Shown here in pieces: positions 8,152 through 63,522 of a DNA stretch of 64,000 nt. A program made the position numbers and the translations under genes. The stretch is from the NCBI RefSeq assembly GCF_054482595.1, contig NZ_CM137008.1; one strand, 5' to 3'. The notes beneath the pieces are model-generated. The model worked only from the letters and a program-made list of their open reading frames with translations. It was not told the DNA's origin and ran no database searches. How positions within the stretch are numbered: the stretch's first letter is position 1; every line of letters begins with the position of its first letter.

Positions 8152-9240
8152 TCACGGCAGGCGGTGGCGGGCTTGATAATAAGCCTGCCAGTGAGCTTCT
8201 TTATGTGTGGCGACACGCTGTTCGAAGTAACGGCGCAGACGAGCGCGATCTTCTTCGTTATCTTTGACGATGGTTCCGGCAATGCAGTCCACCAGATCGG
8301 CTGGCTCACCTGCGCGATTCGCTAAAAACCAGGCGCGGACGCCCACGGCGTGGGCCACGTTCACGGCTTCAGCGGTGGACATAATCGCTGTTAGTGTATC
8401 CATTGACGTTTTCTTTTCGCCGTTGGCACGCAGATCGCGGAAGGTGCGGACCAGTAACTCCAGTACCGCGTCAGGCACTTTATGCGGAATACCGCTATGG
8501 GCCAGCAAACGCGCCGAAGCACTGGCGACAAGCTCCAGCTCCTGGGCGAAATCCATAATCGGAAAGACAGTTTCAAAATCGAAGCGACGCTTTAGCGCAG
8601 CACTCATTTCATTGACGCCGCGATCGCGGGTATTGGCAGTGGCAATAATATTAAAGCCTTCTCGCGCATAGAGCTGACTGGCTTCACCAGTGAGTTCCGG
8701 CACCGTCATCACCCTGTCAGAAAGCATACCTAACAGACAGTCTTGCACTTCCAGCGGTGTACGCGTTATCTCTTCAAAACGGACGATTTTGCCGTCGCGC
8801 ATTCCCTGGTAAAGCGGGGCAGGGACCAGCGCTTCCGTTGATGGACCATGATTGATAAGCAGGGCGTAGTTCCAGCCGTACTTGATTTGATCTTCGGTAG
8901 TAGATGCGCCGCCCTGGATGGTTAACCCGGCATCGCCGCTAATAGCGGTTACCAGTAATTCAGACAGGAGAGATTTTGCGGTGCCAGGTTCCCCCACCAA
9001 CATCAAACCGCGTCCGGTGGCAAGAGTGACTAACATACGTTCGACAGCGGAGGGACTAATCACCACTTTACGGCTAATATTTTGCGCGCTATCGCCAAGG
9101 ATAAAAGCACGGGCCGCAGGCAAACTTAACTGCCAACCGGGCGGGCAAGGTGCGTTATCATTTTGTTTTAATTTTGCCAGTTCATCGGCGTATAACACAG
9201 CAGCAGGCGGACGCTGCAGATGATTATTCTGCGGTGACAT
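8152..9240 (-). CDS. yehL: YehL, MoxR-family AAA+ ATPase (362 aa)
   Basis: Walker A GEPGTAKS and AAA+ core; ORF trimmed to MSPQNNHLQRPPA (ATG at 9238-9240). Confidence 0.85.
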   Translation of the reverse strand: MSPQNNHLQRPPAAVLYADELAKLKQNDNAPCPPGWQLSLPAARAFILGDSAQNISRKVVISPSAVERMLVTLATGRGLMLVGEPGTAKSLLSELLVTAISGDAGLTIQGGASTTEDQIKYGWNYALLINHGPSTEALVPAPLYQGMRDGKIVRFEEITRTPLEVQDCLLGMLSDRVMTVPELTGEASQLYAREGFNIIATANTRDRGVNEMSAALKRRFDFETVFPIMDFAQELELVASASARLLAHSGIPHKVPDAVLELLVRTFRDLRANGEKKTSMDTLTAIMSTAEAVNVAHAVGVRAWFLANRAGEPADLVDCIAGTIVKDNEEDRARLRRYFEQRVATHKEAHWQAYYQARHRLP

Positions 9241-9349
9241 ATATTCATCCCTGAAATGTATTAATGAAATAAACGATATTTTACGCGCAATAAATGTTTG
9301 GCTCATTAGTTGTTTGAGCGAAAAATATCTGGAAAGCAGATCACAGTAA

Positions 9350-9388
9350 ATAAAAAAACCTGCTGGTGAGGCAGGTTCTTTTATTTAC
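9350..9388. terminator. Bidirectional intrinsic-terminator-like hairpin, unit A; candidate 3' end of an antisense sRNA
   Basis: aaaaaaa-cctgc-tggtgag-gcagg-ttcttttattt: GC stem flanked by an A-run on one side and a T-run on the other. Confidence 0.5.
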
Positions 9389-9672
9389 TATTTTCAGGCC
9401 TAACACCACAGCCTGTGCAACATCGTGTTCCAACGAACGAATTATAACCACGGCTGGACCCCGTTGCAATTAAGATAATGAGATTTATAATCCAGACCGT
9501 TGGGACGTTGCGCCGGATCGAACCTATTTCAAGTCCTGGCTACCGGACGGGTGGTGCTTCAGGTGGTGCCCTGAGCCGGAGTGCAACATCGTGGTCCAAC
9601 ATACGTAAACCAGTATTGACAGGCAGTGTAAGGGTAAGGTGCTGGTGTTGCGCTCCTTAATAAGGAGAGCGG

Positions 9673-9762
9673 ATGGACTCGCTGACACAAAAGTTAACCG
9701 TGCTCATTGCTGTACTGGAGCTATTAGTAGCTCTGTTACGGTTGATTGATTTGTTGAAGTAA
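9673..9762 (+). CDS. zorP: Small hydrophobic 29-aa protein MDSLTQKLTVLIAVLELLVALLRLIDLLK; candidate type I toxin (ZorO/ZorP-like)
   Basis: ATG 9673 preceded by AGGAG (9662-9669) that lies in an inverted repeat (ctcctta/taaggag) able to sequester the RBS; single predicted TM helix; followed by a hairpin. Symbol recalled from the E. coli O157 zor-orz locus; which copy is O and which is P is uncertain. Confidence 0.55.
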   Translation: MDSLTQKLTVLIAVLELLVALLRLIDLLK

Positions 9763-9783
9763 CGGGCAAATTGAAACGCATCT

Positions 9784-9810
9784 AAGGGGGAAAACCGCTT
9801 CCCCCTTTAA
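9784..9810 (+). terminator. Hairpin downstream of small toxin ORF copy 1
   Basis: aaggggg / ccccctt stem with a 10-nt loop and a short T-run. Confidence 0.4.
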
Positions 9811-9959
9811 TAAAATGATTACTGTTTTTATTAATTCATCATATAACTCATTTTTATTTATAAATTCATCGATTTTATATTCAACGCACCATTTGACCGG
9901 GATGTGAATATTTATGGTGGGCTATTGGCAAAAAATATCTGGAAAGTAGATCGCAGAAA

Positions 9960-9998
9960 ATAAAAAAACCTGCTGGTGAGGCAGGTTCTTTTATTTAC
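9960..9998. terminator. Bidirectional intrinsic-terminator-like hairpin, unit B
   Basis: Same sequence as 9350-9388. Confidence 0.5.
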
Positions 9999-10280
9999 TA
10001 CAGTGACGCTAACTTGCTGATTGTGCAACATTTCGTACCAACGAATAAATTATAACCATATCCACACTCCATTGCAATTCAGTGAGTGAGATTTATAATC
10101 CTGCCCGTTGGGAGGTTGTGCCGGATCGGACCAATTTTAAGTCCTGGCTGCCGGACGGGTGGTGCCGCAGGCGGTGCCCTGATCCGGAGAGCAACGTTTC
10201 GTACCAACATACGTAAACCAGTATCGACAGGCAGTGTAAGGGTAAGGTGCTGGTGTTGCGCTCCTTAATAAGGAGAGCGG

Positions 10281-10370
10281 ATGGACACGCTGACACAAAA
10301 GTTAACCGTGCTCATTGCCGTACTGGAGTTATTAGTGGCTCTGTTACGGTTGATTGATTTGTTGAAGTAA
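10281..10370 (+). CDS. zorO: Small hydrophobic 29-aa protein MDTLTQKLTVLIAVLELLVALLRLIDLLK; candidate type I toxin (ZorO-like)
   Basis: Second copy, differs by one residue (S3T); same RBS-sequestering architecture. Confidence 0.55.
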   Translation: MDTLTQKLTVLIAVLELLVALLRLIDLLK

Positions 10371-10391
10371 CGGGCAAATTGAAACGCATCT

Positions 10392-10418
10392 AAGGGGGAA
10401 TACCGTTCCCCCCTTTAA
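10392..10418 (+). terminator. Hairpin downstream of small toxin ORF copy 2
   Basis: aaggggg / cccccctt stem. Confidence 0.4.
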
Positions 10419-10479
10419 GAAAGCTATACTCGTCATACTTCAAGTTGCATGTGCTGCGACTTTAATTATCTAGAGTATA

Positions 10480-10797
10480 TTATTCTATTTCTTGGTTGAA
10501 TATATTCTGTAGTTTACGATTAAAAATTGCTATTACAGTTTCAGGTGATTCACCTCGTAATTTCCGCTCATCAATACACTCATCTCTTATATAAATCAAC
10601 GCATCATTTATTAGCGGGTCAGCATCTTCTCGATCACGTTGATGAAATGTTGAACGTAGCCGGAATCGCTCCAGTCGATAGACGGAACCTGTAAATAATT
10701 CAGAGCATTTATGGATCTCAAGTCTGAAGGAAAACGGATCTTCAGGTACAGGGACCTCATAATCGTAAATAGCAACCAGCTCTTTTTGCACGATCAT
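10480..10797 (-). CDS. yehK: YehK, small uncharacterized protein (105 aa)
   Basis: Complete ORF, co-directional with the giant paralogues upstream. Confidence 0.7.
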   Translation of the reverse strand: MIVQKELVAIYDYEVPVPEDPFSFRLEIHKCSELFTGSVYRLERFRLRSTFHQRDREDADPLINDALIYIRDECIDERKLRGESPETVIAIFNRKLQNIFNQEIE

Positions 10798-10858: not shown

Positions 10859-13800
10859 TTAATGGAAAATGACGTCAGGTGCGCTTAACGCCTCACTCAA
10901 ATTAAACACATCAAGTTCGGCAAAAGTGACGGATTTATTGTCACGGTACACTCGAAGAGAACGGAAGCTCATTAACGCTTTGCTATCAACATTGTAGTGG
11001 TTAAAACCGGGTGAAAACTTAAGGACCAGCCGGTACTCGCCCAGGTCATAGACAAATGCATCCTCATAGCCTGACTCCCAGCCTTTGTATCGCATTCCCA
11101 TAAGCTGCCCAACGGTAGCGGATTTACCTTCCCAGCGAGTCAGGCTGTTACTGGTTGACTCGTCAGGTGTGAGCAGCACCGTGCGCCGCGCCAACTGGCG
11201 AAAAGGCGGCATAATTTCGTAATCGGCAAAAAGCTGTGCAAATTCACTGCGCATTTCTACTGTCATTTCTAACGGGTGGGCAATGCCAATCAGAGCGTCC
11301 GCAGGCAGGTCAATTGGCTCATCTTGCGCATTGCAGAACTCCCCCTCTGCGGCCACACGAAAGGCGTTGAGTAAACAACGCGGTTCATTTGCCGGATAAG
11401 CCCCCCATATTAATCGCTGGGTAACCAGACGGGTAAAGGGATGATTAACAAACAGAGAATGAAAATCTGCCAGCGACCAGCGTCGGGTGGTACGTAGGGC
11501 CGTTTCAAGACGCGGGAGCAGGTTTTTGCTCACCTGAGTAGCATCTTTTTTTAGCCCTTTTAGTCGGGCCAGTGCCTCGGGCGCTTTCAGTTGATCGTCA
11601 TCGGCACGCAACCGGGGAACACTTTTCTGGCGAACGTTTTGTTGATCAAAGATAACCGGGTTGAGGTTTTCATCGAAGCGAACGGTAAACTGCCGGGGAC
11701 CAAAATCAAAAATCAACGCCTGCGGATCATCAAGACCTAGTGTTGGGACTAATCTGTCCGCTAACTCTTCCTGGCTTAGCCCGCGATTTTCTGCGACCAC
11801 CTGAAGAAATTCCGCTGCGTTTTCACGTAATGAAGAGGATTTCGCCCGTTGTGATACATGATGCAGCTGTATCAGCGCCATATCATTATTCATCAAGGTA
11901 AGTATATTCAGACCAATGACAGCACGGGCAGATTTGCCTTCTTGTGGCCAGGCGAGGATCTGTGTCGTCAGATCCCGAGCCGTGCTTTCGTCACCAAAGA
12001 GACTTAACGCCAGAAATGCCCAGTTGTCTTTTGCGGGGGCACCAGCTTGTTGCCACGCAGTGAAGAGATCCCAGGCAAAAGCGGCCAGCGTTTGTGGCTG
12101 GCAAAACGTTTTCAGTTGTTCCAGACCGCTATAAAAACGTCCGCCCTGGGTAAAGCGCAGCATTTCGCCGATAATTTCCAGAGCGTCATCGGTAACAGGC
12201 TGATTATTAGTGATAAGTCGCGGCCTGGACCACATTGCCGGATGCCAGAAATCAGGGGCTTTTGGAATGCGTGCCGGGTAAATGTCCATTGGACCCTGTT
12301 TCAGTAAATGCTCCAGGGCAGGCCATACATCTGTACGCTGCCAGCGGTTTGCCACGGTTTGCAGCAATTCACCATGTCCCTGTTCGTAAAGTAAACGCAG
12401 GGCAAGTAATGCAGCTTCGCTATTATCGCTGGATTTGGTGAAGACAAGAGGGATAAGTGCAGTAGCCGTATGTTCCGGCCAATGTAAAATCCACTGGCGA
12501 GCCAGATCACGCTGCACCGCGAAACGTCGCCAGACGCGGGCAACGGGCAGGGCCAGTTCTGTTGCGCCAAAATTTAAAATTAACGGAAATGTTTCTTTTG
12601 GACGATGTAAAAAAGCCAACATCAGACCTGGTAGCGCATCCAACCCGAGGATACTGAGAAAATAGTCCTCACCCGCGAACAGATGTTTTTTCTCATTGAT
12701 ACGCAGCCAGAAGGTCAAAGCCATCTCACGCGGCAACTGTGCCAATAAATACAGGTTCCAGACACTCTTTTCCGGACGATAACGTGAGTAGTTGTCATTT
12801 TCCCATATGTTAATTAACGCTTCTATGTGACCGCTGCGGAGCGCCTGTTCTGCTAATTGTGCTTCCGGGGAGTTCCAGCCATTCAGGATCTCTTCAACCC
12901 GCCCCTGGTAGTAATGCCACTGAACAATGAGTGAATTGCGTGCAGCATCCAGTTTTCCGGGGAGTATATAATTCAGAAACAGCCATACATCATCCCCAAA
13001 ACCCAGTTCCTGTAATACAACTCGCCCACTTTTTTGTTCCATGCGTTCCGCAAGAGATTCCGTGCTGAAATAACGGGCAGACTCAGTGGAGGCAAGCCAC
13101 TCTTGTTCGCCTGGTTGCCAGTAAACTTGCGGGGTTAATTCGAGCGGTGCCAAATCAAGACGTGGAGCTGTCATTTTTTTCTTACTACGCCACGGTGGTG
13201 AAACGAGGATTTCAGGCAGATTGCTGTTATCGGTGCCATCAATAACCGGTTTGGGCGGTGCCAATAAATAACTATTCAGTACTGCCCGGGCTTGAGTACT
13301 TAACCACTGCATCACCTCTTCTGCCAGTTGTGGCTGCGATGCCATCAGCGTTTGTAACAGCGTACGCCAGTATTCATCGCGTGCTTTTTGCTGGGCAGGC
13401 AGCTTTTTGTCTTCGATGATTGGATAACCAAGGCGGGCTGGTGGTTCTTTTAACGCCAGCAGTTCTGCCAGTGCCGCGAGCGTCGCGTGGGGGAAGTTTT
13501 TACTGTATTTAGCCACACGTTGCAGGCTGGGTTTGTTTTTATCAGCCACCAGTAGCAAGGTGTGGATGACCTGCGGATGGTTAATTTGTACCAACAGACT
13601 GCCGCAATCTTCTTTATGGGCATACATCGCGAGGCGCGGAATGGCTGCCAGTCCTTGTTCGCGCAAAAGGGCGGCGCAGGCCGCGTAGCCGAAGTGGTTT
13701 TTTTGTGACATGTAGCTGGCTTCGCGATCGCTAAATACGTCCAGGCCCCAGTATCGTTCGAGTTTTTTTACCGCCGTATTATCAGTAGCAACGACCTTTA

Positions 13801-14491
13801 ACCACTCCTTTGAATGGAGACTTGACCGGGAGCTTTCAAGACTGGCGAGTTCATTGGCTATTTCAGGCTTTTCCGGGAGGATCAGCGCAATAAAAGGACG
13901 GCGAATTTTGGGTATTCCTGGCAGTGCGGCAATGAGTTTATCGGCACAACGCTGCCAGCAACTTTCCTCTGCCAGCGACAGATGCTTACGCAAACGGAGA
14001 TCGAAATCGTTATAGGTCGCGGAGCCATAACCGTAGCCATAGTCCTCGTCCTGATACTGCAAAGTGACGACCAGTGAATCACTCTCATAACGCCGCGCAA
14101 TGCACTGACGCGCCATCACTACATCCGTCGCATATTCCAGCCCCTCTTGTTGGACGATTTCGTCGAGCAACTGTTGGCTGTCATTTTGCGCGATACAGGC
14201 TAGCGCCGCCATTGTCCGGGCCGGGATTGAGGGTTTGTGTTCGCCGATCAAGTTGATGGCCTGCGTGATGGCGGACTGCCACTCCAGTGAAAAATTTTCA
14301 TAACGCCAGACAATGTTTTTTTTCTTCTCAGCTTTTTGTAGCAATTCATCACCCAGTGTCTGAATGATGCTTTCAGTGATAACAGGCACTGGTTCGCCCG
14401 GCCAATTGCGATGGCTGAGTGGTGTTTTACCCTTTTTATATTTCAGTTCCAGTTGGGCGTTATCAGCCAGCCACGGTAATTCCTTGTCCAT
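10859..14491 (-). CDS. yehI: YehI, giant DUF4132-type protein (1210 aa); paralogue lacking the N-terminal WGR-like domain
   Basis: Aligns with the two upstream paralogues from the LPWLAD(N/D)AQ motif onward; conserved C-terminal block (RLxPxLGLDD...FGPRQFTV..FDE.L.P); RBS aaggaaagag upstream. Confidence 0.8.
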   Translation of the reverse strand: MDKELPWLADNAQLELKYKKGKTPLSHRNWPGEPVPVITESIIQTLGDELLQKAEKKKNIVWRYENFSLEWQSAITQAINLIGEHKPSIPARTMAALACIAQNDSQQLLDEIVQQEGLEYATDVVMARQCIARRYESDSLVVTLQYQDEDYGYGYGSATYNDFDLRLRKHLSLAEESCWQRCADKLIAALPGIPKIRRPFIALILPEKPEIANELASLESSRSSLHSKEWLKVVATDNTAVKKLERYWGLDVFSDREASYMSQKNHFGYAACAALLREQGLAAIPRLAMYAHKEDCGSLLVQINHPQVIHTLLLVADKNKPSLQRVAKYSKNFPHATLAALAELLALKEPPARLGYPIIEDKKLPAQQKARDEYWRTLLQTLMASQPQLAEEVMQWLSTQARAVLNSYLLAPPKPVIDGTDNSNLPEILVSPPWRSKKKMTAPRLDLAPLELTPQVYWQPGEQEWLASTESARYFSTESLAERMEQKSGRVVLQELGFGDDVWLFLNYILPGKLDAARNSLIVQWHYYQGRVEEILNGWNSPEAQLAEQALRSGHIEALINIWENDNYSRYRPEKSVWNLYLLAQLPREMALTFWLRINEKKHLFAGEDYFLSILGLDALPGLMLAFLHRPKETFPLILNFGATELALPVARVWRRFAVQRDLARQWILHWPEHTATALIPLVFTKSSDNSEAALLALRLLYEQGHGELLQTVANRWQRTDVWPALEHLLKQGPMDIYPARIPKAPDFWHPAMWSRPRLITNNQPVTDDALEIIGEMLRFTQGGRFYSGLEQLKTFCQPQTLAAFAWDLFTAWQQAGAPAKDNWAFLALSLFGDESTARDLTTQILAWPQEGKSARAVIGLNILTLMNNDMALIQLHHVSQRAKSSSLRENAAEFLQVVAENRGLSQEELADRLVPTLGLDDPQALIFDFGPRQFTVRFDENLNPVIFDQQNVRQKSVPRLRADDDQLKAPEALARLKGLKKDATQVSKNLLPRLETALRTTRRWSLADFHSLFVNHPFTRLVTQRLIWGAYPANEPRCLLNAFRVAAEGEFCNAQDEPIDLPADALIGIAHPLEMTVEMRSEFAQLFADYEIMPPFRQLARRTVLLTPDESTSNSLTRWEGKSATVGQLMGMRYKGWESGYEDAFVYDLGEYRLVLKFSPGFNHYNVDSKALMSFRSLRVYRDNKSVTFAELDVFNLSEALSAPDVIFH

Positions 14492-14500
14492 GCTCTTTCC

Positions 14501-17500
14501 TTATTCAAACAGGGCTTCAATATCGTTAATTAGCTCGCTGGCGGTGATGGCATCGAGTACGGAGAGCTGCGCTTCCTGTGTTGAATTACTCCCCCAGCCA
14601 TAGCTTTCCGCTTTGCCTTCCCATAGCCACTGCTTGCTTAAGAGTTGCTCGGCACTCAGTTCGGCTGGCGACATGCCTACCGCAAAGCCTTCATCGATTT
14701 CCATGATTAACGACCAGCGGCCCAGAGGTTTGATCATCCAGCCGATCCAGCCTCCATCCTGTGGTTCGCCCTTTATCCAGCCTTTATTCGCCAGCCCCAT
14801 TACCCGACCGCTCGGGCATTTTCTGCCTGCCCAGCGGGTCAGTTCGCTGGCATTGCGCTCGGTTTCTGTCAGGGCGTAACTGTTACGGTCGAGCTGGCGG
14901 AACGGCGGTAGCAGTTCGTAGTCGGCAAAAAGCTGCCCAAATGCGGCGGCATCCGTCGGTGATATTTCCAGAACGTGAGGAATACCAACAGAGATATCGC
15001 CTTCCGGCAGGGTGAAAAGATCATCGTCAGCGGTGCTGTAGCTGTTATCTTCCGCTACCCGGAAACAGGCCAGTAGCTGGTTTTCGGCGCTATAAACGCC
15101 CCAAATCAGACGGCGGGTTAAGTGGCGAACTAGCGGATGCTCAACCAGGAAGAGCTGAAAGTTATCCGGTGACCAGCGGCGACGCAGGCACATGGCGGAT
15201 TCCAGCCTTGCTACCTGCTGGGCGGCGACGGTACGCGCATCTTTTTTCAGCAGTTTGTAGCGGTTAACAGCATCGTTCGCCTGTGATTCATCATCGCTTT
15301 TGTTTGGTTTGGGCAGGTCTTTCAGACGGCTGCCAGAAACATCACGCACAAACGGTTTTAAGGTTTCATCAAAGCTGACGGTGAACTGGCGTGAGCCGAA
15401 ATCCAGCAGCAACGAACCGTTATCATCCAGACCGAGATCCGGTGCTAACCGATCTTCAAGCTCTGCCACCGTGAGTTCGCGGCTTTCGGCAATGTCGGCA
15501 ATTTTTTCTTTTGCCCGCTCCTGTAATGCTTTGAATTTCAGTTTCTGGGCAATACCGTTAAGCTGCATCAGGGCGATATCACTACCGATAGCGGCGAGAA
15601 TATCCAACCCAACGGTGGCGCGTTTATGCTGGGATTCACCAGGCCAGGCGCGTATTAATGGCGTCAGTTTGCGGGCGGTGTCATCGTTACCAAGAACGCC
15701 TAACGCAGTGAACGCCCAACTCTCTTTCGACGGTGCGCCCGCAGTCAGCCAGGCGGTAAACAGATCCCAGGCAAATTCAGCCAGTGAGTCGGCGGTACAG
15801 GCATCTTTCACCTGCAATAATCCCGGATACAGGGCCTCTTCCTGAGGGAAGCGGAGCATTTCACCGAGGTGCTGGAGTGCGCTATCTGGCAGTGATTGGG
15901 CGTTTGTATTTAATACCGGGCGCGTCCAGAGCGATGGCTGATAAAAGGCCGGAAGAGTGGGGATTTTTGTCGGGTGATTATCTAAGGGATCGAGCGCAAG
16001 CAGAGCGTTCACCGCGTCGGTTACTTCCGGCTGGTTATAACGCCGGGCGATTTCTTGCAGTAATGGCTGATGACCGTTTTCGGTAAGCATACGTAAGGCA
16101 GCGCGAGCGTTATCTTGTGCTTCACCGGCTTTGCCGAGCGCCGAAGGCAGCAGGCCGGTTATGGCGTGTTCCGGGTATTTTAGCAGCCAGCTACGGGCGT
16201 CTTGTCGTAGGGTTTTGAGTTTGTTGAAGGCGCGGGCAATGAATGGAGCCAATTCGACAGCCGCGAAATATTGTGCCACGGGAAGAGCTTCCTGCGGATA
16301 GCGAGATGCTGAGTGGATAAAACCTGTTAAACCAGCAAGTCGAAGATGCAACATTACTTGTTTTTCACCTGTATGTGGTTCTTTACTAAGGATATTCCAC
16401 ATCTCAATAGCTTTATTTATGGGTAAAACATGGAGTGAAGAAAGCTTCCATTCGCCCTGATAAGGGGCGTTATAGGACTTAAAAGCATCGATCAAAGTTA
16501 AATAATCTTCACGCTGCCAAGCATCCAACGCTATTTCTGGAATATCAATATAGCCTCTATGTTTGTTCCAATCCCAGCGGTCGAATCCCAGGGAATTCAG
16601 AAAACCTTTTTCTCCCTCTGCTTGCTGACGAGGTTGCCAATTATGCTGCACTTGTAGTCTTTTGCTTTTTGTTTCATTTATTGTACAGAAAGATTCCAGG
16701 GGTAATGGTGCTAAATCCAGCACTGGAGTCGGCGATTTTTTCTTTTTAGCCTGCCACGGCGGTGAGACTAATACGGCAGGCAGCATATCGGCGTTCGCAT
16801 AAACTGAAGGTTGTGTCAGTTGTTGCTGGCATGACTTAAGAACGGTAACTGTCGGGGCAGATAGCCAGGAGATCACCCGTTCTACTAATGTTGGTTGTGA
16901 GATAAGCATCGTCATTAGCATCATGCGCCAGCGCTTTTCATCTTTTTGTGCCAGAAGTTCTGCTAATGCCGCCAGCGCTGCATGTGGAAAGCGAACGAAA
17001 GCCTTTGTCATGCGATCGTGGCAACGCTTTCCCTGCTCACTTGCATGGATAAGTAGTGTAAGTGCTTGCGGGTGGTTGATATGCATCAACACTTCCCCAC
17101 ATGTGTCACCAGCAGCGTAAGGGGCAAAACGGGCCAACGCAGCGACACCTTGCTCCTTGAGTACTGTCGCACACCAGATTTTACCGCCGTAATAATCATC
17201 AAATACCTGCCCTGGCTGTCCTGGATAGTATTTCCCCAGTTCTGCCAATACCTGCTCGTCGGTGGTCGTCAGTTTTAGCCATTCCAGCGCATATACCCCT
17301 TTTTGTCCGCAAAGATGTCTGGCAATCTCATGAGCTACTTCTGGTTTTTCCGGCAACAATAGTGCGACCAGCGGCTGGTTCCAGGCGGGCATGTTTCCGA
17401 GAGCGGCAATCAGTTTGTCGGCGCAGCGCTGCCATACATCGTCATTTGCAAGTGAGAGATGCTTACGCAGGCGCATTTCAACCGAAGCGAAGCGTGACAG

Positions 17501-18259
17501 ATAGTCAGGCTGCTTGTTATCCGGGGTAAAAGTAATGAGGTGGGCATCATAATTCCAGTCAAATCGGATGAATTGCAATGCGATGACAACCTCAGTGGCA
17601 TATTCCAGACCACCTTCCTGGACAATTTGATCCATTAACTCTTCGTGATCGTTACGATTGAAGCCTTGCTCCAGCGCAACCAGTACCGCCAGAACCATCG
17701 GTAGTAGTGTGGTGCTAATCGGCGAGTCGATAAGGCCCACTGCTTGTGTAATCGCCTGCTGCCAGTCCAGTGAACAGGTGCTGTAATCGAAGGTGATCAC
17801 CTTTTTAAAACGCCGGTGAGTATTCGCGGAGACGGAGCGTAGCAGGGTTAATTCATTCTCCTTTGGCACAGGATCGCCAGGCCAGCGTCGATGACTTAGT
17901 GTGGTTGGCGCAACCTCTGTCGGTAAAATGATTTGGGCGTCGTCTGCCAGCCAGGGGAGGTGGTCTCCAGTCAATGCTGGTTTGTCTTGTGGCAAAGGGG
18001 CTATTTCAGGGCATTCGATAACCTGGGTGGGTACAGATGTCGGTGTCATCACGGATACTTCTTCTACGTAGCCCTTTTTTGTTTTCTCCGCAATCAGCTT
18101 CAGTTCCGCTTTTTCCGCCGCCGCAGCATCTGCAAAGCTTTTTACCTGACTTTGCCCGTTAGTGCCGACTTTACCCCAGGTTATATGCAGCTCGTTTCTC
18201 TGCTGCTCCACCGCCCAGAATTTATGTGATTTTTCGTCCTGATAAATATAGGTTTTCAT
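14501..18259 (-). CDS. Giant WGR-domain / DUF4132-type protein (1252 aa), MolR/YehH-like paralogue
   Basis: N-terminal MKTYIYQDEKSHKFWAVEQQRNELHITWGKVGTNGQ (WGR-like); N-terminal and C-terminal segments are near-identical at DNA level to the 1266-aa paralogue; RBS aagga upstream. Confidence 0.8.
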   Translation of the reverse strand: MKTYIYQDEKSHKFWAVEQQRNELHITWGKVGTNGQSQVKSFADAAAAEKAELKLIAEKTKKGYVEEVSVMTPTSVPTQVIECPEIAPLPQDKPALTGDHLPWLADDAQIILPTEVAPTTLSHRRWPGDPVPKENELTLLRSVSANTHRRFKKVITFDYSTCSLDWQQAITQAVGLIDSPISTTLLPMVLAVLVALEQGFNRNDHEELMDQIVQEGGLEYATEVVIALQFIRFDWNYDAHLITFTPDNKQPDYLSRFASVEMRLRKHLSLANDDVWQRCADKLIAALGNMPAWNQPLVALLLPEKPEVAHEIARHLCGQKGVYALEWLKLTTTDEQVLAELGKYYPGQPGQVFDDYYGGKIWCATVLKEQGVAALARFAPYAAGDTCGEVLMHINHPQALTLLIHASEQGKRCHDRMTKAFVRFPHAALAALAELLAQKDEKRWRMMLMTMLISQPTLVERVISWLSAPTVTVLKSCQQQLTQPSVYANADMLPAVLVSPPWQAKKKKSPTPVLDLAPLPLESFCTINETKSKRLQVQHNWQPRQQAEGEKGFLNSLGFDRWDWNKHRGYIDIPEIALDAWQREDYLTLIDAFKSYNAPYQGEWKLSSLHVLPINKAIEMWNILSKEPHTGEKQVMLHLRLAGLTGFIHSASRYPQEALPVAQYFAAVELAPFIARAFNKLKTLRQDARSWLLKYPEHAITGLLPSALGKAGEAQDNARAALRMLTENGHQPLLQEIARRYNQPEVTDAVNALLALDPLDNHPTKIPTLPAFYQPSLWTRPVLNTNAQSLPDSALQHLGEMLRFPQEEALYPGLLQVKDACTADSLAEFAWDLFTAWLTAGAPSKESWAFTALGVLGNDDTARKLTPLIRAWPGESQHKRATVGLDILAAIGSDIALMQLNGIAQKLKFKALQERAKEKIADIAESRELTVAELEDRLAPDLGLDDNGSLLLDFGSRQFTVSFDETLKPFVRDVSGSRLKDLPKPNKSDDESQANDAVNRYKLLKKDARTVAAQQVARLESAMCLRRRWSPDNFQLFLVEHPLVRHLTRRLIWGVYSAENQLLACFRVAEDNSYSTADDDLFTLPEGDISVGIPHVLEISPTDAAAFGQLFADYELLPPFRQLDRNSYALTETERNASELTRWAGRKCPSGRVMGLANKGWIKGEPQDGGWIGWMIKPLGRWSLIMEIDEGFAVGMSPAELSAEQLLSKQWLWEGKAESYGWGSNSTQEAQLSVLDAITASELINDIEALFE

Positions 18260-18271
18260 TGTTAAATCCTT

Positions 18272-21200
18272 TTAATCAAACAGTGATTCAATGTCGTTAA
18301 TCAGCTCGCTGGCGGTGATGTCGTCGAGCATGGAGAAAGTGGGTGAGGATTGTTTACCATAGCGATCATAAGGGGCGGTGATTTTTACGCTTTCGACAGG
18401 CAGCAGGTCGCTATACCCCGTTTCGCCATAAATTAATGAAAAAGGTTCTGTTTCAAGTTCGAGAGCACCATAAGGGGTAGATTTGCGCATCGCATAGACG
18501 CTGCCGCTTTCTTCCAGACGTTGCCAGCCTCTGCGTTCCAGCCCGACAATGCGTCCGGCCTGGCAGAGACGTCCGTTCCAGCGTGACAATTCATGGACAT
18601 TACGTTCGTTATCAGCAAGGTGGTAACTACCACGTTCGAGCTGTTGGAAAGGGGGAAGCAGTTCGTAATCAACGTAAATTTGCCTGAATGCAGCGGCGGA
18701 TTCAGGGGGGATTTCCAGCACATGCGGTATACCGATGTTTCCTGCTGGCAGCGTGAATAACTCATCCTGCGCATCGCTGTAAGTGCTGTCTTCTGCCACG
18801 CGAAAACAGGTGATAAGAGCGTTTTCATCGTTATAAACCCCCCATAACAGCCGTCGGGTTAAGTGACGTACCAGCGGATGCTCCACCAGAAACAGGCGGA
18901 ACTGCTCTGCCGTCCAGCGTCTGCGCTGGCACATAGCCTGTTCCAGACGGGTAATTTGCTGGCTGGCGATAGCACGAACATCTTTTTTCAACTGTTTGAA
19001 GAGATTAACTGCGTCAGTTGCCAGTGTTTTATCATCGCTCTGGTTTGGCTTAGGTAAATCTTTCAGGACTTTGCCGTTTGCATCGCACACTACAGGTTTT
19101 AAGGTTTCGTCAAAACCAACGGTGAATTTGCGGGGGCCGAAATCCAGTATCAGCGAGCCACTGCTATCAAGCCCTAAATCCGGTGCCAGGCGATCTTCCA
19201 GTTCGGCCATTGTCAGTCCGCGATTTTCGGCGACCATATTGATTCTGTCGCTGGCATTTTCCTGTAATGCAACGAATTTAATCTTTTGCGCAATGCCATT
19301 AAGCAACATAAGCGCAATGTCGCTACCGATACTGGCTAACACATCCAGCCCGTAAACCGCGCGTTTATGCTGGGATTCACCCGGCCAGGCGCGGATGAGC
19401 GGGGTTAGTTTACGCGCGGTGTCGTCATTGCCTAGAATCCCCAGCGAGGTAAATGCCCAGTTCTCTTTTGCGGGTGCGCCTGCTTCTGTCCATGCCGTGT
19501 AGAGATCCCAGCCAAAGTCAGCCAGTGATTCGCGGGTGAAGGTCTCTTTGATGATCGCCAGCCCAGCGTAGGAGGTAATGTCGCGTGGAAAGCTCAACAT
19601 TGTGCCGAGGTGGCGCATAGCGTCATCTGGCAGAGGCAGGTTGTTACTTTTAAGCCGAGGTCTGCGCCATAAGGTGAACTGATAAAAGCCGGGCAGTGGG
19701 GCGATTTTTGCAGGATATTCTTCCAGTGGGGCGCTATCAAATAATGTTGCCAGCGCAGATAAAACATCAGGTTGATTATATCCTTGGGCGATTTCCTCAA
19801 TCGTTTCTCGCTGGTTTAATTTCACTAGCAGGAGGAGTGCCTGGCGGGCATATTCCCGATTTTGGCACGGTTTGCCCAGCGCCAAAGGCAGTAGCCCGGC
19901 GGCGGCATGGCGCGGGTTATTTGCCAGCCAATTAACGGCATCCTTGTAAGCTATTTTTTTCTGTAACCGCTGCGCCATTGGTAAGGCTAGTTCACTGGCT
20001 CCAATAAAAAGGGTGAATATCCACAGGCGTTGATGATCTCGTTGCAAGCAGGTCATAAACGCAGGAATGGCCGTACTACCAAAAACCGCCAGAATCTCTT
20101 TCTCACCTGAATATCGCTCCTCAATGATTATTTGGTTGAGAAATGAAATCGCCTGTTGTCCCGGTAAGTAACAAAGCGCAGATAGATTCCAGCTTTTGTT
20201 GGCATTGTTGTGATATTTCGCAAACTCAGCTTTTAGTGCTGGAAAATCAAAGCGCAACAAGGCATCAACAGCGCTTTGCGGTATATATTTTTTTTCATGT
20301 AAGTCATTTTCGCAATGCAGCCATTCATTAAAACCTAATTGCCAAAGGATTTGTTGTTCTGGTGTAAAAGGAATGAAAGATGTCTCCCAGCTTTCTTTTT
20401 CAATTAGTGGCAGAACGGTAAATAAGGTTTGCTGTGATGCCTGATATTGCGCAATTTCACTGAATCTGGATATGTCAGTATGACTGATTAACTCTGTAAT
20501 TCCTGGTGTGATATCCGTGACGGCAGGAATGGGAAGTACCGGTAAATCAAATACGGGTATGACATTCTTTTTCTTATTTATTACCCACGGTGGAGCGACA
20601 AGCAGCTCCGGCAACATATCCACAGTGGCATATTCACATTCTTCAGCTACTGGCAGCGGACGACATTCAGATAAGATGCCTGCCGCCTTAGCATTAACCC
20701 AGGGAATGACCTCGCATACTAACTCTGGCGTGGCGGTAATCAGTTTGACAAGCGCTTTACGCCACTCATTATTTTCATGTATTGCCAGCAAAGTAGCATA
20801 AGCGGCAATAGCCGCAGCGGGATGTTTTTGGCAGGCTTTGCTTAAGTATTCCAGGTGCTTTTTCTTGCCATTTACACCGAGGATCAGAATTTGAATCGCA
20901 TCCGGGTGATTCGTTTTCCATAGCCATTTGACAAGATCTTCAGCATTGGCGTGTATGTGAGTGAAAAGGTCCGTGTATTTTACGGGATAGTCGACAGGTA
21001 GCTTGAGAAGAATCCGGCTTACACCACGCATTCCATTATTTGCCAGCAACGTAGCCAGATATTTGCGGAAATCATTATATAGCGGTGGGAAACCATATTT
21101 TTCCTGGATGGCCAGGGCAACATCATCGCTTACCATCATACTTAACCAGGTCATCGCCGGAACGTTTTGGTCTGCATAACGTAGCGCCATAGCATTGGCA

Positions 21201-22072
21201 ATATCCGGGCATTCGGGGAGCAGTAACGCCGCAAAAGGTTGCCGTGCTGGGGATAGCGTCGGAATGGCGGCGAGTACTTTATCTACACAGCGTTGCCACT
21301 CATCTTCTGAAGCGAGTGAAAGATGATGACATAGACGTTGATGCCAACTCGGCAGCGATTCTGCTTTGTGATTAGGTGGAATGATGGTGGTTACTGCGCC
21401 TTTTACTGGTTTATATCTAAGTTGAAGAGCGAGAAGGGCAATTTCAACGGCACTTTCCAGACCACAGCGAATGACTAAGTCATCGACCAGTTCATCTGCA
21501 GAGTAAGAGTTCCAGAAACTCCAGAGCAATGCTGCATCAGATTGTGCACTCCCTGTCTGTTGATTACCCTGAACTCGCATTTGTAACTCAGCAAAAGCCT
21601 GCTGCCAGTTTTCTGGATAAGAACGGTAATTGTTGGCGGGATCATATGCCCTGGTGTTATTCGCGATGAGCTGCCATATTTGACCATCTTTGTGCAGATA
21701 ATTGATCTCTCTGGGGCGAGAGCGATGAGGAAAAGCAAATCGATTAATATCGTCAGTTAGCCGAATGACCGCATCATCAGCCAGCCAGGGGCGTTGGTTT
21801 TTACTCTCAGGGGAAGTTTCAACTTCAGGAGTGGCTTTGGTAATGGGGGGGATATGCACGTTTGCTGAAGCATTTTCCACATAGCCTTTTTTCGTTTTCT
21901 CTGCGATCAGCTTAAGCTCCGCTTTTGCCGCTGCCGCAGCATCCGCAAAACTTTTTATCTGGCTTTGCCCGTTAGTGCCGACTTTGCCCCAGTTGATATG
22001 CAGCTCGTTTCCCTGCTGCTCAACCGCCCAGAATTTATGTGATTTTTCGTCCTGATAGATAAAGTGTCTCAT
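18272..22072 (-). CDS. molR: Giant WGR-domain / DUF4132-type protein (1266 aa), MolR-like (misnamed molybdate metabolism regulator)
   Basis: N-terminal MRHFIYQDEKSHKFWAVEQQGNELHINWGKVGTNGQ; position next to metG matches recalled K-12 molR, where it is a pseudogene. Confidence 0.75.
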   Translation of the reverse strand: MRHFIYQDEKSHKFWAVEQQGNELHINWGKVGTNGQSQIKSFADAAAAAKAELKLIAEKTKKGYVENASANVHIPPITKATPEVETSPESKNQRPWLADDAVIRLTDDINRFAFPHRSRPREINYLHKDGQIWQLIANNTRAYDPANNYRSYPENWQQAFAELQMRVQGNQQTGSAQSDAALLWSFWNSYSADELVDDLVIRCGLESAVEIALLALQLRYKPVKGAVTTIIPPNHKAESLPSWHQRLCHHLSLASEDEWQRCVDKVLAAIPTLSPARQPFAALLLPECPDIANAMALRYADQNVPAMTWLSMMVSDDVALAIQEKYGFPPLYNDFRKYLATLLANNGMRGVSRILLKLPVDYPVKYTDLFTHIHANAEDLVKWLWKTNHPDAIQILILGVNGKKKHLEYLSKACQKHPAAAIAAYATLLAIHENNEWRKALVKLITATPELVCEVIPWVNAKAAGILSECRPLPVAEECEYATVDMLPELLVAPPWVINKKKNVIPVFDLPVLPIPAVTDITPGITELISHTDISRFSEIAQYQASQQTLFTVLPLIEKESWETSFIPFTPEQQILWQLGFNEWLHCENDLHEKKYIPQSAVDALLRFDFPALKAEFAKYHNNANKSWNLSALCYLPGQQAISFLNQIIIEERYSGEKEILAVFGSTAIPAFMTCLQRDHQRLWIFTLFIGASELALPMAQRLQKKIAYKDAVNWLANNPRHAAAGLLPLALGKPCQNREYARQALLLLVKLNQRETIEEIAQGYNQPDVLSALATLFDSAPLEEYPAKIAPLPGFYQFTLWRRPRLKSNNLPLPDDAMRHLGTMLSFPRDITSYAGLAIIKETFTRESLADFGWDLYTAWTEAGAPAKENWAFTSLGILGNDDTARKLTPLIRAWPGESQHKRAVYGLDVLASIGSDIALMLLNGIAQKIKFVALQENASDRINMVAENRGLTMAELEDRLAPDLGLDSSGSLILDFGPRKFTVGFDETLKPVVCDANGKVLKDLPKPNQSDDKTLATDAVNLFKQLKKDVRAIASQQITRLEQAMCQRRRWTAEQFRLFLVEHPLVRHLTRRLLWGVYNDENALITCFRVAEDSTYSDAQDELFTLPAGNIGIPHVLEIPPESAAAFRQIYVDYELLPPFQQLERGSYHLADNERNVHELSRWNGRLCQAGRIVGLERRGWQRLEESGSVYAMRKSTPYGALELETEPFSLIYGETGYSDLLPVESVKITAPYDRYGKQSSPTFSMLDDITASELINDIESLFD

Positions 22073-33104: not shown

Positions 33105-33240
33105 TCATCGCAACCAAACGACTCGGGGTGCCCTTCTTTGTGAAGGCTGAGAAATACCCGTATCACCTGATCTGGATAATGCCAGCGTAGGGAAGTCACG
33201 GACCACCAGGTCATTGCTTCTTCACGTTATGGCAGGAGCA
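33105..33240 (+). ncRNA. TPP riboswitch (THI element) in the thiM leader
   Basis: Contains ctcggggtgcccttctttgtgaaggctgagaaatacccgtatcacctgatctggataatgccagcgtagggaa, matching the recalled thiM THI-box aptamer; the platform reaches the SD ggcaggagc. Confidence 0.85.
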
Positions 33241-49450: not shown

Positions 49451-49537
49451 AAAAAATAAGCCCGTGTAAGGGAGATTACACAGGCTAAGGAGGTGGTTCC
49501 TGGTACAGCTAGCATTTTATGGGTTATGTTTTTCAGC
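49451..49537 (-). ncRNA. cyaR: CyaR (RyeE) small regulatory RNA
   Basis: Minus strand reads GCTGAAAAACATAACCCATAAAATGCTAGCTGTACCAGGAACCACCTCCTTAGCCTGTGTAATCTCCCTTACACGGGCTTATTTTTT, matching recalled CyaR including its terminator. Confidence 0.85.
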
Positions 49538-49621
49538 GAAACGGATGATAACCTTAATAAATGCAGCTGTATGTGATCGGTTTCTAAGAATTTTCCATCC
49601 GGGAAAAATAATCGAAATTAA

Positions 49622-50983: not shown

Positions 50984-51129
50984 AATTCTCTCGTTCTGAT
51001 GACAGGTCAGATCCGCTTCACCTGATGAAGCGGTTAGGGGAGTGCCCCCACTTTAAGGGCGGGCATTGTAGCGCTGTGGGGGGATCTGGTAAAGCGCCGG
51101 ACGCCAACAACCCACGCCCGGCATCGTAA

Positions 51130-62854: not shown

Positions 62855-63000
62855 CGGGACGCTGAAACGGGAAAGCCCCTCCCGAGGAAGGGGCCATAAA
62901 TAAGGAAAGGGTCATGATGAAGTGGATCATCATCGTGGTGCTCTTAGTCATAAGCTTCCCGGCTTACTAAGACTACCAGGGCGGGGGAAACCCCGCTCTA
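62855..63000 (-). ncRNA. Candidate Sib antisense antitoxin sRNA, copy 1 (boundaries approximate)
   Basis: Inferred from the ibs/sib architecture, in which the antisense sRNA fully overlaps the ibs ORF; hairpin elements at both ends of the unit. Confidence 0.4.
62914..62970 (+). CDS. Ibs-family hydrophobic toxin peptide (18 aa, MMKWIIIVVLLVISFPAY)
   Basis: ATGATG start, wholly hydrophobic peptide ending in AY, RBS aggaaaggg; location between mdtA and yegL matches the recalled K-12 ibsA/ibsB-sibA/sibB locus. Confidence 0.65.
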   Translation: MMKWIIIVVLLVISFPAY

Positions 63001-63179
63001 CCCTCACTCCTGAAAGTATGCCTTCACGATAAGATTGTCAATCCGCAGGCTTTGCAGTCTGCGATCCTGCCAGCAAATATTCTTTGCGAGTCGTTACGCA
63101 ATAATCACAGAGGAAACTATTTTGTTCACGCGTTAGCGATAGACTGTATTCAGGGCGAAAGGAGGTAAGCCGACGATTT

Positions 63180-63330
63180 CAGCGGGATGCTGAAACGGGA
63201 AAGCCCCTCCCGGAGAAGAGGGCTTTTAATAAGGAAAGGGTTATGATGAAGCACGTCATCATACTGGTGATACTCTTAGTGATTAGCTTCCAGGCTTACT
63301 AAGAACACCAGGGGGAGGGGGAAACCTCTC
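63180..63330 (-). ncRNA. Candidate Sib antisense antitoxin sRNA, copy 2 (boundaries approximate)
   Basis: As copy 1; minus-strand hairpin gccctcttctccgggaggggc followed by a T-rich run just beyond the ibs start. Confidence 0.4.
63243..63302 (+). CDS. ibsA: Ibs-family hydrophobic toxin peptide (19 aa, MMKHVIILVILLVISFQAY)
   Basis: Near-identical to recalled IbsA (MMKHVIILVILLVISFPAY); A versus B assignment uncertain. Confidence 0.65.
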   Translation: MMKHVIILVILLVISFQAY

Positions 63331-63522
63331 CCTAACCCTCACTCCTGAAATTATGTCACTCCGCCCTTAGTGTCAATCGACGGCTCTCCGTTCTTGCGAG
63401 GCGAATAGCAAAATTTTCTGCGCCGCCGGGCCTAATTCTGAAAGTTTCTTCGTTTGCTCTTATTTCATTATTGCAGTCGGTATGATACCGGACCTCGATA
63501 ATTCTCTAAGAAAGGATTTCTT

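Follow-up and report, generated by a model that had tools for sequence, protein, structure and literature searches.

What is encoded between yehL and yehK, where two related half-kilobase units follow one another and each carries a very small open reading frame behind a long leader? The window analyzed here is a stretch of 64,000 nucleotides (NCBI RefSeq assembly GCF_054482595.1, contig NZ_CM137008.1), and a preliminary description made from its letters had proposed a zor-orz-like type I toxin–antitoxin locus. Positions 9318-10418 are almost certainly the chromosomal Escherichia coli zor-orz locus, which comprises two tandem type I toxin–antitoxin pairs. At the level of sequence, the identification rests on four independent lines: the small RNA genes, the peptides, the genomic context and the assignment of unit 1 as the P pair. 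The locus is an ordinary, already characterized one and its recognition a correct rediscovery. The zor-orz locus of O157:H7 is said to have been described by Fozo et al. in 2010. The prediction of zor-orz dates from 2010; validation came in 2014-2017, and a survey of more than 2,000 E. coli genomes followed in 2024.

The two units each span ~0.49 kb, lie 608-610 bp apart and are 87% identical. Direct repeats of 300 nt (9414-9713 versus 10022-10321, 87% identity) and 73 nt (9318-9390 versus 9928-10000, 95% identity) are spaced from start to start by 608 bp and 610 bp, respectively, in agreement with the 608-bp period initially noted for two units of ~0.5 kb. Global alignment of 9318-9810 with 9928-10418 yields 428 identical columns out of 493, with two gap columns. 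From left to right, the locus consists of orzP (minus strand) and zorP (plus strand), a spacer, orzO (minus) and zorO (plus) and a repeat element, flanked by yehL (8152-9240, minus) on the left and yehK (10480-10797, minus) on the right, the zorP-orzP pair adjoining yehL and the zorO-orzO pair adjoining yehK. We assign unit 1 as the P pair because its orz is identical to the orphan orz retained by a K-12-type strain, which has been published as OrzPmg and reported to be 100% identical to OrzP of strain EDL933 (PMC11264685). The A+T-rich spacer (9808-9927) is specific to tandem two-copy loci, as nothing equivalent is found 3' of unit 2, nor in the single-copy strain compared. Each unit closes with a G+C-rich hairpin on the plus strand that is the probable terminator of the toxin transcript. 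The zorP hairpin (9784-9807, 9-bp stem, -14.6 kcal/mol, z = -3.2) was left uncalled by a consensus terminator scan because of its weak T-run and is conserved in unit 2, where the zorO hairpin occupies 10392-10415 (8-bp stem, -13.0 kcal/mol, z = -2.3).

The repeat element between zorO and yehK is a 65-nt imperfect palindrome (10418-10482) with ends TATACTC...GAGTATA and a predicted fold of -16.5 kcal/mol. It is a dispersed repeat, found in 5425 of 5426 E. coli genomes at a median of seven places per genome and a maximum of 12, and presumably resembles a short ERIC/IRU element. A weak Rfam match to isrH at 10425-10479 was discarded as a terminator or repeat look-alike.

Two hydrophobic open reading frames of 29 codons had been noticed in the preliminary description, and the program-made list of reading frames places them on the plus strand at 9673-9762 (MDSLTQKLTVLIAVLELLVALLRLIDLLK) and 10281-10370 (MDTLTQKLTVLIAVLELLVALLRLIDLLK). 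The encoded peptides match exactly the UniProt entries ZORP_ECO57 and ZORO_ECO57, respectively, and an exact-sequence look-up names the peptide starting with MDS 'Small toxic protein ZorP' and the one starting with MDT 'Small toxic protein ZorO'. Their mean hydropathy (GRAVY) is 1.39 for the 9673-9762 product and 1.40 for the 10281-10370 product. The two reading frames differ at four codons, three of which are synonymous changes, leaving T3S as the single difference between the peptides, as had been observed. This corresponds to the description of ZorP as ZorO T3S (PMC11264685), and the ZorO peptide sequence printed in section 4.3 of PMC6669753 is the same as the 10281-10370 product. Toxicity of ZorO is reported to require residues 20-24, ALLRL (PMC6669753).

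RefSeq/PGAP leaves the zor reading frames and the orz RNAs unannotated in the closest genomes, strain XH990 and O157:H7 strain Z1830, and some other genomes have a 'hypothetical protein' called beneath the locus match. A scan of NCBIfam with both Zor peptides returned no family at E <= 1; this reflects the absence of a Zor model rather than a lack of homology. The missing PGAP and NCBIfam annotation lends no support to the zor-orz reading, yet it is no evidence against it.

Both units give full-length, minus-strand matches to the Rfam family OrzO-P (RF02083, gathering score 60), at 9352-9427 for orzP (99.9 bits) and at 9962-10035 for orzO (88.8 bits). Together with the exact peptide matches, they bear out the proposed identification as zorO/zorP-orzO/orzP. 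The antitoxin genes extend over 9350-9434 (orzP) and 9960-10042 (orzO), with RNA 5' ends at ~9434 and ~10042 and 3' ends at ~9350 and ~9960. The orzP 5' end was set at 9434 because a minus-strand -10 element lies at 9446-9441 and pairing begins at this position. Each Orz gene is located upstream of its zor, runs divergently from it and ends at an intrinsic terminator. The terminator-like hairpins reported upstream of the toxin genes are real: the Rho-independent terminator hairpin of orzP (9345-9389, U-run on the minus strand) has arms of 19 nt that are 95% complementary, the same sequence forms the orzO hairpin at 9955-9999, and both score as terminator-like. The predicted Orz folds contain 16-bp terminator stems, with z = -3.5 for both orzP and orzO. 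The small RNAs themselves had been placed at 9390-9470 and 9998-10080, which covers their 5' part and the promoters; the true genes, however, sit ~40 nt further left and include the hairpin. Sub-threshold Rfam matches at the Orz terminators (Thr/Trp leaders, STnc370, MIR9563) were rejected as terminator or repeat look-alikes.

Promoter scanning detected a divergent promoter block in each unit (9441-9491 and 10049-10099), in which one palindromic -35 hexamer, TTGCAA (9464-9469 and 10072-10077), serves both strands. In unit 1, the TATAAT -10 hexamers lie at 9446-9441 for orzP and at 9486-9491 for zorP, with 10 of 12 matches on both strands; in unit 2, the -10 hexamers lie at 10054-10049 for orzO and 10094-10099 for zorO. 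The spacer from TTGCAA to TATAAT is 16 nt in the zor direction and 17 nt in the orz direction in both units, and the same hexamers are tabulated for zor and orz in PMC11264685 (Table 3). Taking the published zorO 5' UTR length of 174 nt (PMC5397157), zor transcription would start at 9499 and 10107, 7 nt past the -10 hexamers, with RNAs beginning GUUGGG; for the Orz RNAs, the equivalent geometry predicts a start with GUUGG. The zorO 5' UTR accordingly covers 10107-10280, the 174 nt ahead of the ATG, and that of zorP covers 9499-9672 if the two leaders are equally long. The long leader, the promoters and the 18-nt pairing site all reproduce the published values (PMC3919570, PMC5397157).

The leaders contain the regulatory features described for zorO. 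The EAP ('exposed after processing') region of zorO corresponds to 10179-10208 (+73..+102), and a standby-like motif, given as conserved in PMC11264685, reads GGAGTG in the zorP leader (9578-9583) and GGAGAG in the zorO leader (10186-10191). A consensus Shine–Dalgarno sequence, AAGGAG, is positioned 5 nt ahead of each ATG (9662-9667 for zorP, within a hairpin at 9653-9667; 10270-10275 for zorO, within a 6-bp hairpin). It forms part of the inverted repeat CTCCTTA/TAAGGAG seen in the initial inspection, which we locate at 9655-9669 and 10263-10277, and folding predictions pair AAGGAG (+164..+169) with +155..+160. The predicted fold of the full-length zorO RNA pairs nucleotides 1-22 with +74..+102, in agreement with published structure probing (PMC5397157). 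Unlike in zorO, the 5' end of the zorP leader is predicted not to pair with the EAP region in the minimum-energy fold. Upon deletion of the first 28 nt, the computed unpaired probability of the EAP region rises from 0.32 to 0.42 for zorO and does not change for zorP. These thermodynamic estimates only weakly recover the EAP opening that has been published, and we give them no weight.

Complementarity between each antitoxin and its toxin leader is short and specific. Nucleotides 1-18 of OrzO (10042 to 10025) are complementary to zorO 10191-10208 (+85..+102) over 18 nt with one G-U pair, and OrzP pairs with zorP 9581-9600 (+83..+102) through 13 nt and 6 nt separated by one A-G mismatch. [quoted passage not shown] Both cognate pairs satisfy the published pairing rule of at least 15 continuous nucleotides, or at least 17 nt with one mismatch (PMC3919570), OrzP-zorP doing so through the discontinuous stretch of at least 17 nt. 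The predicted cognate duplexes (-31.3 kcal/mol, and -38.9 kcal/mol for OrzP-zorP) are considerably stronger than the predicted non-cognate ones (-24.4 kcal/mol, and -20.2 kcal/mol for OrzP with zorO), and these modeled energies fit the published lack of cross-talk.

In O157:H7 strain Z1830, which served as the O157:H7 reference for alignment in place of EDL933, yehL and yehK flank the same locus, with 99.1% identity. From the start of yehL to the end of yehK, the two sequences show 10 small differences. None falls in the zorO-orzO unit (9930-10407), and seven are substitutions in the zorP-orzP unit (9333, 9494, 9498, 9552, 9559, 9575 and 9617) that spare the pairing sites, the promoter hexamers, the Shine–Dalgarno sequence and the reading frames. 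The two pairs described for O157:H7 EDL933 (Wen et al. 2014, PMC3919570; Wen et al. 2017, PMC5397157) have the same peptides, RF02083 RNAs, promoters and 174-nt leader, and the same OrzO target (+85..+102), Shine–Dalgarno hairpin, tandem order and yehL/yehK flanks.

The locus had been taken to be absent from K-12, which is accurate for the toxin genes, but an intact orzP and ~28 nt of the zorP leader persist there. In the K-12-type strain ME8067, the segment 1442-1747 corresponds to window positions 9240-9530 and comprises orzP, the promoter block and this leader remnant. From ~+28 of the zorP leader onwards, the sequence is deleted as far as a point within the repeat element beside yehK, zorO included, and no toxin is present. 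The orz-only locus of K-12 thus occupies the same chromosomal site and its orzP and promoter block are identical to those of unit 1; relative to the window, it has lost the toxins and the greater part of the repeat element that follows them.

A search of 5426 complete E. coli genomes recovered the locus DNA, whole or in part, in 5232 of them, and its presence here is not a matter of chance. A coverage of at least 80% does not tell one-copy from two-copy genomes, since a lone unit is matched by both units of the query. We used the inter-unit spacer (9800-9935) as the marker for tandem loci, which identified 1802 of the 5426 complete genomes. Most of the remaining genomes have single-unit loci (e.g., UPEC_U013) or orz-only loci. 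A published survey of 2,212 assemblies, with 42% two-copy, 25% one-copy and ~30% orz-only loci (PMC11264685), agrees with this distribution.

Strain XH990 is the closest genome found, and its zor-orz locus is 100% identical. Over the whole window, the alignment with XH990 forms two blocks of 99.7% and then 97.7% identity, the drop occurring past window ~51075-51095. At this point, XH990 contains ~750 bp of extra DNA (~19074-19833) encoding a RelE/ParE toxin and a frameshifted ParD antitoxin; we set this ParDE module aside, as a stretch of XH990 with no counterpart in the window. The XH990 annotation past ~18.7 kb can be transferred to the window only approximately. Beyond yehK, the minus strand carries yehI (10859-14491, 1210 residues, DUF4132) and two further DUF4132 genes (14501-18259, 1252 residues; 18272-22072, 1266 residues), both intact; the three genes are tandem paralogues. 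A 187-nt stretch close to the 5' end is common to the second and third (18062-18248 and 21875-22061, 89% identity). The second gene is annotated in XH990 as two partial pseudogenes despite an open reading frame, and the third is frameshifted there although the copy in the window is intact. Two known RNA elements are also found in their expected places, the CyaR small RNA (49454-49539, minus strand, 100.7 bits) and the TPP riboswitch upstream of thiMD (33114-33210, plus strand, 71.2 bits).

Read together with the published experiments, these features suggest the following scheme for the control of toxin synthesis. A strong sigma-70 promoter would drive a zor mRNA with a 174-nt leader, while a second promoter using the same palindromic -35 would drive an Orz small RNA of ~83 nt in the opposite direction. 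The full-length leader would be poorly translated because its first ~22-28 nt pair with the EAP region (+73..+102) and because the Shine–Dalgarno sequence is locked in a short hairpin. Loss of the first 28 nt would free the EAP region, which probably acts as a ribosome standby site, and would raise translation. [quoted passage not shown] If made, the 29-residue Zor helix would insert in the inner membrane, leading to depolarization and to growth stop. From the window itself come the identity of the sequence elements and the way they are arranged, the complementarities and the fold predictions, and every sequence element that the published scheme needs is present and intact in both units. Toxicity, repression by OrzO, dependence on RNase III, leader processing and the EAP region have been published for the same sequences (PMC3919570, PMC5397157, PMC6669753, PMC9860968), growth arrest and RNA repression having been demonstrated experimentally for the identical zorO-orzO sequence (PMC3919570, PMC5397157). 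In the literature, zorP-orzP is far less studied than zorO-orzO. As a phenotype, multicopy zor-orz has been reported to improve growth in aminoglycosides.

A known parallel is the E. coli type I system tisB-istR1, which, like zor-orz, has divergent genes, a 29-residue membrane-depolarizing toxin, a long leader that is inactive until 5' processing, cleavage by RNase III and a small RNA that blocks a standby site upstream of a structured ribosome-binding site (PMC5397157). The two systems are unrelated in sequence. SOS/LexA control applies to tisB, whose full-length mRNA is completely untranslatable, whereas the full-length zorO mRNA is weakly translated.

Could the antitoxins instead belong to a classical cis-antisense system such as hok/sok or ibs/sib, with full-length pairing between opposite strands? 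The term 'antisense sRNA' in the preliminary description points in this direction, and a genuine cis-antisense example, ibs/sib, is present elsewhere in the window. However, the Orz genes (9434 to 9350 and 10042 to 9960) end upstream of the zor starts (9499 and 10107); since the Orz and zor coordinates do not overlap, this arrangement is refuted and we consider it very improbable. Moreover, Orz-zor complementarity is limited to 18-20 nt within the leader, and zor/orz are described as divergent, like tisB-istR1 and shoB-ohsC (PMC3919570). The antitoxin RNAs are made from the minus strand, are divergent from the toxin transcripts and act more like trans RNAs with a short match than like true antisense RNAs. 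The zor and orz genes could also be viewed as relics whose toxin reading frames and leaders have decayed or fallen silent, leaving at most functional small RNAs, and it is true that ~30% of E. coli genomes are reported to be orz-only (PMC11264685), that a remnant of this kind is seen in the K-12-type strain and that PGAP calls no genes at the locus in the closest genomes. There is very little chance that this describes the present locus. Promoters, leaders, Shine–Dalgarno sequences, 29-codon reading frames and terminators are all intact in both units, zorO-orzO is base for base the experimentally toxic O157:H7 allele, the differences between the reading frames are mostly synonymous and both pairs follow the pairing rules of PMC3919570, all of which argues against decay.

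Many small reading frames occur by chance on either strand of the interval, and the half-kilobase units might thus be non-coding RNA or repeat elements with incidental coding capacity. We regard this explanation as extremely unlikely given that the peptides exactly match characterized toxins, that a consensus Shine–Dalgarno sequence stands 5 nt before each ATG, that codon changes are mostly synonymous and that published toxicity depends on defined residues of the peptide, ALLRL at positions 20-24 (PMC6669753). Nothing at the sequence level contradicts the zor-orz reading.

The ibs/sib example, next to mdtA, is a known locus and the second tandemly duplicated type I locus of the window. Two Sib RNAs (Rfam RF00113, 140 and 150 bits) lie on the minus strand at 62899-63041 and 63228-63376, and each overlaps an Ibs toxin reading frame on the opposite, plus strand (62914-62970, MMKWIIIVVLLVISFPAY; 63243-63302, MMKHVIILVILLVISFQAY), of 18 and 19 residues, respectively. 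Here the arrangement is truly cis-antisense, in contrast to that of zor-orz.

The symmetry of the zor-orz units raises a further, more tentative idea. Within each unit, the zor mRNA and the Orz RNA are mirror-symmetric about the single palindromic TTGCAA (9434-9499 and 10042-10107), and the leader sequence CCAAC (+98..+102) is a possible pairing partner for the 5' end of either RNA. With their common GUUGG starts, the mirror layout and the common CCAAC target, Orz thus resembles a copy, acting in trans, of the inhibitory 5' end of the leader. That Orz is a trans-acting mimic of the zor mRNA 5' end, perhaps derived from its inverted duplication, is doubtful on the present evidence and would be of modest interest if true. 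As a lesser possibility, suggested by the modeled structures, the zorP leader of the window, with its six substitutions relative to O157:H7, may fold and be regulated differently from that of zorO. The published zor-orz work, as far as it is covered here, contains no discussion of Orz mimicry or of a divergent zorP leader.

In summary, recognition of the locus from sequence alone was accurate, and the biological gain is small, the locus having been predicted, validated and surveyed already. The practical point concerns annotation: a 1.2-kb 'intergenic' stretch that is empty in the RefSeq/PGAP records of the closest genomes holds two toxin–antitoxin pairs, and owing to this PGAP gap and to the want of an NCBIfam Zor model, the locus will keep being rediscovered by readers of the sequence.
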